From Escherichia coli (GTDB lineage: Bacteria > Pseudomonadota > Gammaproteobacteria > Enterobacterales > Enterobacteriaceae): a stretch of 64,000 nucleotides of DNA. The stretch lies in assembly GCF_044647545.1 (NCBI RefSeq), contig NZ_CP172818.1, one strand, 5' to 3'. A program made the translations under genes and the position numbers. The notes below the pieces were generated by a model. The model did not search any database and was not told where the DNA came from. It was given only the letters and a program-made list of their open reading frames with translations. Positions 18,428 through 19,653 of the stretch are shown here, piece by piece. Within the stretch, counting starts at the first letter, position 1; every line of letters begins with the position of its first letter.

Positions 18428-18733
18428 TCACGGGTGAGCCACAAACCGGGAAAGCCGCTGGCGCAGCAGGCGGTTTTCCTGCTTCAGGTGCGCAATATCA
18501 TCCATTAACGTCAGCGCCACCGCGATCCCCGGCCAGTCCAGAGCCAGTTCATGACGTAGACGTACCGCGCGTTGCACCACAATGGCGGCATGGTCGTCAA
18601 ATACCCAGGTTGTTTCCTGGATCTCACGCGGTTCAACCACCCCCAAACCGACAATTTCATTCAACTCCTCTTCAGAGATGCCGGTATGCAGGCAAAATTC
18701 GGTAATAGTAAAAGTCACCGTAACATTAGCCAT
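18428..18733 (-). CDS. cbpM: CbpA modulator CbpM
   Basis: 101 aa from MANVTVTF...; start overlaps cbpA stop (TAATG). Confidence 0.88.
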
Positions 18734-19653
18734 TATGCTTTCCCCCAATCTTTACGTGGATCAAAAGACGACTGGGCGTCTGCCAGTTGCTGCCACAGCG
18801 CGGCAGTGTTTTCATCCGGTTTCGGCGGCATCACGATTTTCAGTACCGCATACAGATCGCCGGTCTGTTTTTTGCTCACCAGACCTTTGCCTTTAACGCG
18901 CAATCGTTGCCCGGCCTGGCTGCCAGGCGGGATAGTCAGCAAAATGCTTTCTTTCAGTGTTGGAACGGTGACTTTAGCACCCAGCGCCGCTTCCCACGGG
19001 CTAACCGGCACCACAATTTCCAGATCCTGGCCGACAATATCAAACAGCGGATGTGGCGCAATATGAATCACCAGCCACAAATCGCCATTTGGACCGCCGT
19101 TTTCGCCCGGCGTCCCCTGGCCTTTCAGGCGGATACGTTGACCATTGCCGACCCCTGCCGGGATCTTCACATTCAGCGTTTTCGGGATTTCCTGTTCGAT
19201 CATGCCAAAGGCGTTATAAACCGGCAGGTTATAGCTGATGGTACGCTTATGCTCAGTAAGCGTTTCTTCGAGGAATACCGCCACTTCGATTTCAATATCG
19301 TGGCCGCGAGTGGCGGGGCGTTGACGGCTCTGGCGGGCATGCTGACCGAAAATTGACGAGAAAATATCGTCAAAATCTTCGGCGTTAAAACTCTGACTGT
19401 CGCCATGCTGGAACTGACGGCTAAATTGTGGATCGTTGCGATGTTGCCACATCTGATCATACTCAGCGCGACGTTGTTCATCACTCAACACTTCCCAGGC
19501 TTCAGCGACCTCTTTGAAGCGGGCTTCGGCATCCGGTTCTTTGCTGACATCAGGATGGTATTTGCGGGCCAGTCGACGATAGGCGGTCTTGATTGTCTTG
19601 AGATCGTCCGTCGGTTTCACGCCCATGATGGCGTAATAATCCTTTAATTCCAT
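18733..19653 (-). CDS. cbpA: Curved-DNA-binding DnaJ-like co-chaperone CbpA
   Basis: 306 aa; N-terminal J domain with HPD motif ([12 protein letters not shown]). Confidence 0.92.

Follow-up and report, generated by a model that had tools for sequence, protein, structure and literature searches.

The junctions of hyaCDEF, torCAD, cbpAM and rutAB in the DNA studied here are ordinary overlaps of E. coli operons, either of the -4 type (NTGA) or of the -1 type (TAATG or TGATG). The DNA, called the window throughout, is a 64,000-nucleotide segment of an Escherichia coli chromosome that runs from hyaC to opgH and differs from K-12. Taking all lines of evidence together, we consider it likely that these are common operon overlaps whose downstream genes would start at the overlapping ATG and would be translated with the help of reinitiation, with ymdB/clsC as the exception, where clsC would start inside ymdB. 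A sequence-only reading of the window had claimed shared stop and start codons at seven named junctions. This claim is partly confirmed, being correct at six junctions and a misreading at ymdB/clsC.

Gene coordinates of K-12 MG1655 were mapped onto the window and all named junctions were read directly from the sequence. Two independent annotations were compared, the curated annotation of K-12 and the PGAP annotation of FDAARGOS_497, a strain near-identical to the window except for one odd block. Named genes are present in both annotations at all junctions, so the -4 and -1 pairs are real protein-coding ORFs. The hya, torCAD and rut gene sets are known operons. The overlaps are the following, with the sources that agree on each in parentheses.

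464..467, plus strand: ATGA, hyaD ATG (464-466) and hyaC TGA (465-467), 4-nt overlap (sequence, K-12, PGAP)
1048..1051, plus strand: ATGA, hyaE ATG (1048-1050) and hyaD TGA (1049-1051), 4-nt overlap (sequence, K-12, PGAP)
1443..1446, plus strand: ATGA, hyaF ATG (1443-1445) and hyaE TGA (1444-1446), 4-nt overlap (sequence, K-12, PGAP)
15132..15136, plus strand: TAATG, torC stop and torA start, 1-nt overlap (sequence, K-12, PGAP; absent from the earlier list)
17677..17680, plus strand: ATGA, torD ATG (17677-17679) and torA TGA (17678-17680), 4-nt overlap with a weak Shine-Dalgarno sequence (sequence, K-12, PGAP)
18731..18735, minus strand: TAATG, cbpA stop TAA (18735..18733) and cbpM ATG (18733..18731), one shared base (sequence, K-12, PGAP)
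28562..28567, minus strand: ATGATG, rutA stop TGA (28566..28564) with two in-frame rutB ATGs (sequence, K-12, PGAP)

The statement that cbpA and cbpM share TAATG holds, with a 1-nt overlap in the sequence and the same shared base in both annotations. The ATGA overlaps named for torA/torD, hyaC/hyaD, hyaD/hyaE and hyaE/hyaF are likewise read in the sequence and agree with K-12 and PGAP. The one-base overlap given for rutA/rutB is also borne out, as the rutA stop and the rutB ATG annotated in K-12 and PGAP share base 28564. The sequence at this last junction is GCATGATGACG, in which the annotated ATG (28564..28562) gives the 1-nt overlap and the alternative in-frame ATG (28567..28565) would extend the overlap to 4 nt, as an ATGA.

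Spacings of this kind are enriched in the window. Among its 43 co-directional adjacent pairs, four have a spacing of -4, three of -1 and two of -8, and the -4 and -1 classes account for 7 of the 21 pairs in the range from -30 to +12 (binomial P = 3e-5 under a null of uniform spread over that range). The enrichment of -4 and -1 mirrors the genome-wide pattern reported across prokaryotes, where the enriched spacings are -4, -1 and -8 (PMC12548453). Two 8-nt overlaps, both absent from the earlier list, are also present.

43159..43166, minus strand: ATGATTAA, pgaC start and pgaB stop, 8-nt overlap
62920..62927, plus strand: ATGAATAA, opgH start and opgG stop, 8-nt overlap

The motif by itself is no evidence for a start. 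An overlapping NTG occurs at 14 of 60 gene stops, and these are 14 of the 16 TGA stops, while a stop followed by TG occurs at 7 of 60. Since nearly every TGA stop is overlapped by an NTG, the motif alone is unspecific and nearly uninformative. The overlapping start codon opens a real downstream gene at seven junctions and opens no real gene at ymdB, cspH, ymcE, gnsA, torS and others. Reliance on the motif put one start, that of clsC, in the wrong frame.

As separate observations, appA and torS have single-base deletions close to their 3' ends, and a 253-nt block of 86% GC that is almost free of A (6583-6835) replaces a 19-nt hairpin located downstream of appA in the near-identical strain. This block had no match in E. 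coli genomes, a 24-mer from it had none in metagenome contigs, and a purine/pyrimidine-collapsed search of local loci gave none either.

It had further been claimed that the overlaps fix start codons that differ from the longest-ORF starts. This stands for hyaF (GTG 1383 to ATG 1443), torD (GTG 17644 to ATG 17677), cbpM (TTG 18748 to ATG 18733) and rutB (GTG 28606 to ATG 28564), but not for ymdB/clsC, where an ATG in the wrong frame was picked. For the four genes, the converse would be that the longest-ORF starts are real and the overlaps are annotation artefacts, which we regard as very improbable. Both the curated K-12 annotation and PGAP take the overlap starts, and the alternatives pair poorly with the anti-Shine-Dalgarno (anti-SD) sequence in three of the genes, where the energy at the overlap start vs the longest-ORF start is -8.4 vs -0.9 kcal/mol for cbpM, -7.8 vs -2.8 kcal/mol for hyaF and -11.6 vs +0.6 kcal/mol for rutB. 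In torD, GTG 17644 pairs slightly better (-5.4 kcal/mol, compared with -3.9 kcal/mol at the overlap start), which counts for the longer ORF; pairing does not discriminate between the two, so the torD start rests on the two annotations. No experimentally determined N-terminus or initiation site of cbpM, torD, rutB, hyaD, hyaF or clsC appears in the TRAINSPOTTER supplements, and the fact that no native N-terminus of the four proteins was found in the TRAINSPOTTER and TetRP supplements leaves the longest-ORF starts some room. On the other hand, the TetRP supplements, in which ymdC alone of the genes searched for is listed, propose no alternative start for cbpM, torD, rutB or hyaF.

A Shine-Dalgarno (SD) sequence lies within the upstream gene at all -4 and -1 junctions, with pairing energies from -7.8 to -11.6 kcal/mol for hyaD, hyaE, hyaF, cbpM and rutB and weaker pairing for torA and torD. 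The hyaD start is preceded by AAGGAG (-8.3 kcal/mol), the rutB SD is AGGAGGUG (-11.6 kcal/mol), and the values for hyaE and torA are -9.3 and -5.7 kcal/mol, respectively. The SD of cbpM is placed in the last codons of cbpA, as follows.

18741..18746, minus strand: GGGGGA, Shine-Dalgarno sequence for cbpM within the last cbpA codons (TGG GGG AAA GCA TAA)

This SD has a duplex energy of -8.4 kcal/mol with the anti-SD at a spacing of 7, and the minus-strand context of the overlap is ...AAA GCA TAA TGG CT.... Over the 45 nt around the overlap, 4,967 of 5,426 complete E. coli genomes show no difference from the window. Beyond E. coli, the cbpA-cbpM order and the overlap are kept in all six enterobacterial samples compared, labelled as Salmonella bongori, Hafnia paralvei, Cedecea neteri, Raoultella terrigena, Citrobacter koseri and Yokenella regensburgei. 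Five of these have TAATG and one, Yokenella, has ATGA, so that the only change of the overlap across genera is from the -1 type to the -4 type or back. None of the seven sequences departs from TGGGGGAAA, the stretch with the cbpM SD, whereas synonymous sites next to it vary, and this suggests that the nucleotides themselves are constrained. PF13591 is found in CbpM, and DnaJ domains in CbpA, across genera. CbpM with the CbpA J-domain forms a 2:2 complex, both genes being in one operon (PMC4063869).

The same comparison argues against a longer cbpM. An in-frame TAA lies directly 5' of the cbpM ATG in Yokenella and excludes any upstream start there, leaving only the overlap ATG. The CbpM N-terminus is conserved as M-A/T-x-x-T-V-T-F, and CbpM homologues are mostly 101 aa at full coverage among the matches listed. 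We therefore reject the longest-ORF starts on the basis of the two annotations, the SD pairing (torD apart), the Yokenella TAA, the length of the CbpM homologues and the TetRP data.

Translational coupling at the pairs of the window is plausible. Current models of coupling involve termination-reinitiation, with ribosome scanning, and RNA unfolding (PMC12548453). In the mechanism we favour, the downstream protein would begin at the overlapping ATG, and the ribosome that ends the upstream cistron would remain on the mRNA and reinitiate at the adjacent ATG, a step that may be aided by the SD within the final codons of the preceding gene. A variable share of independent de novo initiation could be added at the more open sites. 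In this way the output of functionally linked proteins would be co-ordinated, such as that of CbpA and the CbpM protein that inhibits it, of TorA and the TorD chaperone, and of hydrogenase-1 and the factors for its maturation. A literature search on the tor, hya, cbp and rut operons found no coupling test at any pair of the window. Native E. coli -4 pairs have been tested systematically once, and four of five were coupled: hyfHI, astDB and ydbH/ynbE strictly and menDH to about 60%, with bioBF uncoupled; removal of the SD harmed four of five -4 pairs (PMC6728339).

The overlaps could also be real without coupling, as by-products of genome compaction and of the ease with which ATGA or TAATG comes about, with the downstream genes translated mainly de novo from their own internal SDs. 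We consider this unlikely, although several of our results sit well with it. The accessibility of the ribosome binding sites (RBSs) equals that of non-overlapping genes, the opening energy from -15 to +5 having a median of 7.18 kcal/mol for overlapping starts vs 7.19 kcal/mol for other starts (Mann-Whitney P=0.70), and shuffled sequence folds no less stably than the junctions (z = -0.25, -0.80, +0.51 and +1.43), none of which is significantly stable. The RBSs of torA (3.7 kcal/mol) and hyaD (4.8 kcal/mol) are open, which makes de novo initiation feasible there, and SDs are strong at most sites. At rutB, by contrast, the SD is paired with codons 3-5 of the gene itself and the opening energy is 11.6 kcal/mol, which speaks against free de novo entry; the only other sign of SD pairing as occlusion is partial, at cbpM (8.4 kcal/mol). 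The bioBF pair initiates de novo despite its -4 overlap (PMC6728339), therefore a -4 overlap gives no guarantee of coupling; the coupling of the other four tested pairs points the other way. Likewise, the overlap of NTG with 14 of 16 TGA stops by chance fits this reading, but -4 and -1 are far commoner than neighbouring spacings both in the window and across prokaryotes, and the cbpA/cbpM overlap persists across genera with only the -1/-4 switch. Reinitiation at the overlapping ATG thus remains the reading that we prefer.

The ymdB/clsC junction has a different geometry. The ymdB stop is the TGA at 58408-58410, and clsC, which ends at 59833, is in another frame than ATG 58407. The ATGA overlap that the sequence-only reading had assigned to this pair is thus refuted by frame analysis, and ATG 58407 is rejected as a start of clsC. 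Candidate starts in the clsC frame are TTG 58343, ATG 58352, ATG 58355, ATG 58403 and TTG 58412. The main features are listed below.

58407..58410, plus strand: chance ATGA at the ymdB stop; ATG 58407-58409 does not share the clsC frame and begins an ORF of 67 codons, 58407..58610 (MICPGWRAR...)
58352..58357, plus strand: ATGATG in the clsC frame inside ymdB (codons TAT GAT GAA), 59- or 56-nt overlap, probable start or starts (PGAP, TetRP, conservation)
58412..58414, plus strand: TTG, from which the K-12 reference starts clsC (473 aa); one nucleotide separates it from the ymdB stop, and AAGGAG is 8 nt upstream
58403..58410, plus strand: ATGAATGA, in-frame clsC ATG 58403 and ymdB stop, possible -8 type overlap, Escherichia only

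The pair has neither a -4 nor a -1 spacing, with a gap of 1 nt in K-12 and an overlap of 59 nt in PGAP, which places the start at ATG 58352. In our reading, the probable start of clsC is 58355 or 58352, inside ymdB, and TTG 58412 may serve as a second start. A more far-reaching version is that the K-12 clsC start is about 19-20 codons too short and that ATG 58355/58352 lies in a 56-59-nt out-of-frame overlap preserved by selection across Enterobacteriaceae; we put this forward tentatively, as a possibility with somewhat less than even prospects. It must be compared with the reading in which clsC starts at TTG 58412 and is coupled to ymdB by reinitiation via AAGGAG, the upstream open frame being incidental, which appears rather unlikely to us. 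The SD signals are on the side of the TTG, which is the start in the K-12 reference annotation: its AAGGAG pairs at -8.5 kcal/mol with an 8-nt spacing, as opposed to weak pairing (-3.8 kcal/mol) at ATGs 58352 and 58355, which tells against an internal start.

To compare species, we fetched 80 clsC loci from other species, 21 of which have ymdB immediately upstream. E. coli has TTG at the reference codon and also ATGs in the clsC frame at -9, -57 and -60. In E. albertii, the codon homologous to the K-12 TTG is TTA, which is no start, and the SD is weakened. About ten genera (Leclercia, Lelliottia, Enterobacter, Pseudescherichia, Superficieibacter, Kosakonia and others) have no ATG, GTG or TTG from -54 to +45. 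Both observations are difficult to reconcile with a start at the TTG. Other genomes fit it better, as most Citrobacter have an ATG at the TTG-homologous codon with a 1-nt gap after the ymdB stop, a point against the internal start, and the stop-N-NTG (+1) geometry recurs in Citrobacter (ATG) and C. sedlakii (TTG), with GTG or TTG at -15 in Cedecea and Buttiauxella. In C. werkmanii, a true ATGA overlap has arisen through a 2-nt deletion, and clsC could start there at no codon other than this ATG, which sits at the TTG position.

The reading frame itself argues for an internal start. In the last 99 nt of ymdB, the clsC frame contains 3 stops per 668 codons, compared with 129 per 3,085 codons upstream, and the third frame contains 57 stops per 668 codons over the same 99 nt. 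All three clsC-frame stops belong to C. werkmanii. In 20 of the 21 species, no stop interrupts the frame over roughly the last 100 nt of ymdB, against an expected number of about 26. This is hard to explain if the upstream open frame is incidental to a TTG start. At the ymdB codons Tyr/Phe159-Asp160-Glu161, 20 of the 21 species keep at least one ATG in the clsC frame. Where residue 159 is Tyr, it is encoded by TAT in 13 of 13 species, and where it is Phe, Asp160 is encoded by GAT in six of seven species, the seventh using the next GAT-GAA. Synonymous-site diversity in the putative ymdB/clsC overlap is weakly reduced (P=0.075). An N-terminal alignment of ClsC from the 80 loci gives a hint of an hPxxE.R-like motif, though with too many gaps to be of use, and NCBIfam has no ClsC-specific model and hence holds no information on the N-terminus.

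Ribosome profiling data point in the same direction. Tetracycline ribosome profiling (TetRP) lists 'ymdC ATG -57' (PMC4909307), which corresponds to position 58355 of the window. The signal at this ATG is 0/30.1/16.1 vs 0/0/5.7 at the annotated TTG (PMC4909307), a distribution that disfavours the TTG, as does the PGAP choice of 58352. Its authors regarded the ymdC signal as not conclusive because the site is inside a strongly expressed upstream gene (PMC4909307). On balance, initiation of clsC at 58355 or 58352 is the reading that we retain.

The six listed junctions and torC/torA are typical cases of -4 and -1 overlaps and present nothing new in kind. They resemble the coupled -4 and -1 pairs described by Huber et al. 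2019 (PMC6728339), Huber et al. 2023 (PMC10666635) and in the review of Brown & Wade 2025 (PMC12548453) in geometry, which is -4 at hyaC/hyaD, hyaD/hyaE, hyaE/hyaF and torA/torD and -1 at cbpA/cbpM, torC/torA and rutA/rutB, in the presence of an SD in the last codons of the upstream gene and in the functional link between the partners. They differ in that coupling is putative for the pairs of the window and predicted RBS occlusion is unremarkable; ymdB/clsC lacks the geometry. Overlaps and coupling are textbook operon features, thus the confirmation of the overlaps here adds nothing new.

The overlap in the trp operon is the trpE/trpD TGATG. The window shares with trp a one-base stop/start overlap in an operon of functionally linked genes, and the difference is that coupling was genetically demonstrated in trp, the classical case (Oppenheim & Yanofsky 1980, cited in PMC12548453), and would be deduced from geometry here. 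Coupling by RNA unfolding also occurs when stop and start are not adjacent, as in MS2 coat/lysis (-50 nt) and rpmI-rplT (+52 nt) (PMC12548453). These are the nearest analogues of a clsC start located 56-59 nt inside ymdB, since ribosomes translating ymdB would cross the clsC initiation region. Unlike in those systems, the inhibitory structure at clsC is hypothetical and the clsC start itself differs between sources.

Three different starts have been given for clsC, in K-12, in PGAP and in the earlier reading, and both the comparative and the profiling signal favour a start inside ymdB. The choice bears on the design of ClsC expression constructs. ClsC is obtained in larger amounts from clones that include the neighbouring ymdB, 'by an unknown mechanism' (PMC8027125). 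If true, an internal clsC start could explain this boost, which would then come from an initiation region or N-terminus of clsC within ymdB and/or from coupling, and not from an activity of the YmdB protein.

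Compared with the corresponding K-12 loci (L003/L004), the window has no etk-etp-gfcABCDE cluster and no IS1 between appA and cspH (6577-7054), and the interval between dgcT and a tRNA-Ser gene (48199-49942) is without the IS3, ymdE and ycdU of K-12. The efeU gene is intact in the window (36688-37518) and is a pseudogene in K-12.

Behind appA lies a 253-nt block (6583-6835) with a GC content of 86% (G 123, C 94, T 26, A 10), including a stretch of about 150 nt that does not contain a single A. FDAARGOS_497, an otherwise identical strain, carries a 19-nt hairpin, GCACGCATACCGGCGTGCG, 3′ of appA, in the place that the block occupies in the window. 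The block had no match among 5,426 complete E. coli genomes, a 24-mer taken from it had none in the metagenome contigs searched, and a search with purines and pyrimidines collapsed did not recover its source. Its appearance suggests an assembly artefact or a foreign or synthetic insert. The 3′ end of appA itself (6544-6576) has a 1-nt deletion, GGGCA-GTGTTCG against GGGCATGTGTTCG in FDAARGOS_497, which frameshifts the last codons and sets the end of the ORF at 6576, directly adjoining the GC-rich block. With respect to K-12, torS (minus strand, near 9338) has lost 1 nt at position 2718/2745 of the gene, and its C-terminus is altered as a result, the original K-12 end being ...EAWLHKKDLNAI; the torS of FDAARGOS_497 is likewise flagged as frameshifted in its annotation.

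At the rutA/rutB junction, tandem in-frame ATGs (ATGATG, 28562-28567, minus strand) lie across the rutA stop, and the overlap can therefore be read as 1 nt or 4 nt; annotations place the rutB start at the second ATG, giving 230 aa. The annotated start of ymcF is an ATT (7563-7565), the same codon in K-12 and in the window, located 10 nt 3′ of the cspG stop. Two overlaps follow:

ymcF/ymcE, overlap of 26 nt
ymcE/gnsA, overlap of 11 nt

ClsC-like proteins of beta- and gammaproteobacteria outside Enterobacterales (L044-L084, fetched clsC loci) have a hydrophobic stretch at the N-terminus, followed by a lipobox-like L-A-G-C and then a conserved LPSLEGR segment. This arrangement is missing from Enterobacterales ClsC orthologues, whose short N-termini vary in position. 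The Citrobacter werkmanii locus (L008, ~1478-1504) has lost 2 nt at the end of ymdB. This loss moves the ymdB stop, creating a true ATGA overlap with clsC, and also brings stops into the upstream clsC frame. Among species, the ymdB/clsC stop/start spacing differs, with values of -4, +1, -8, and -55 or longer (nt).
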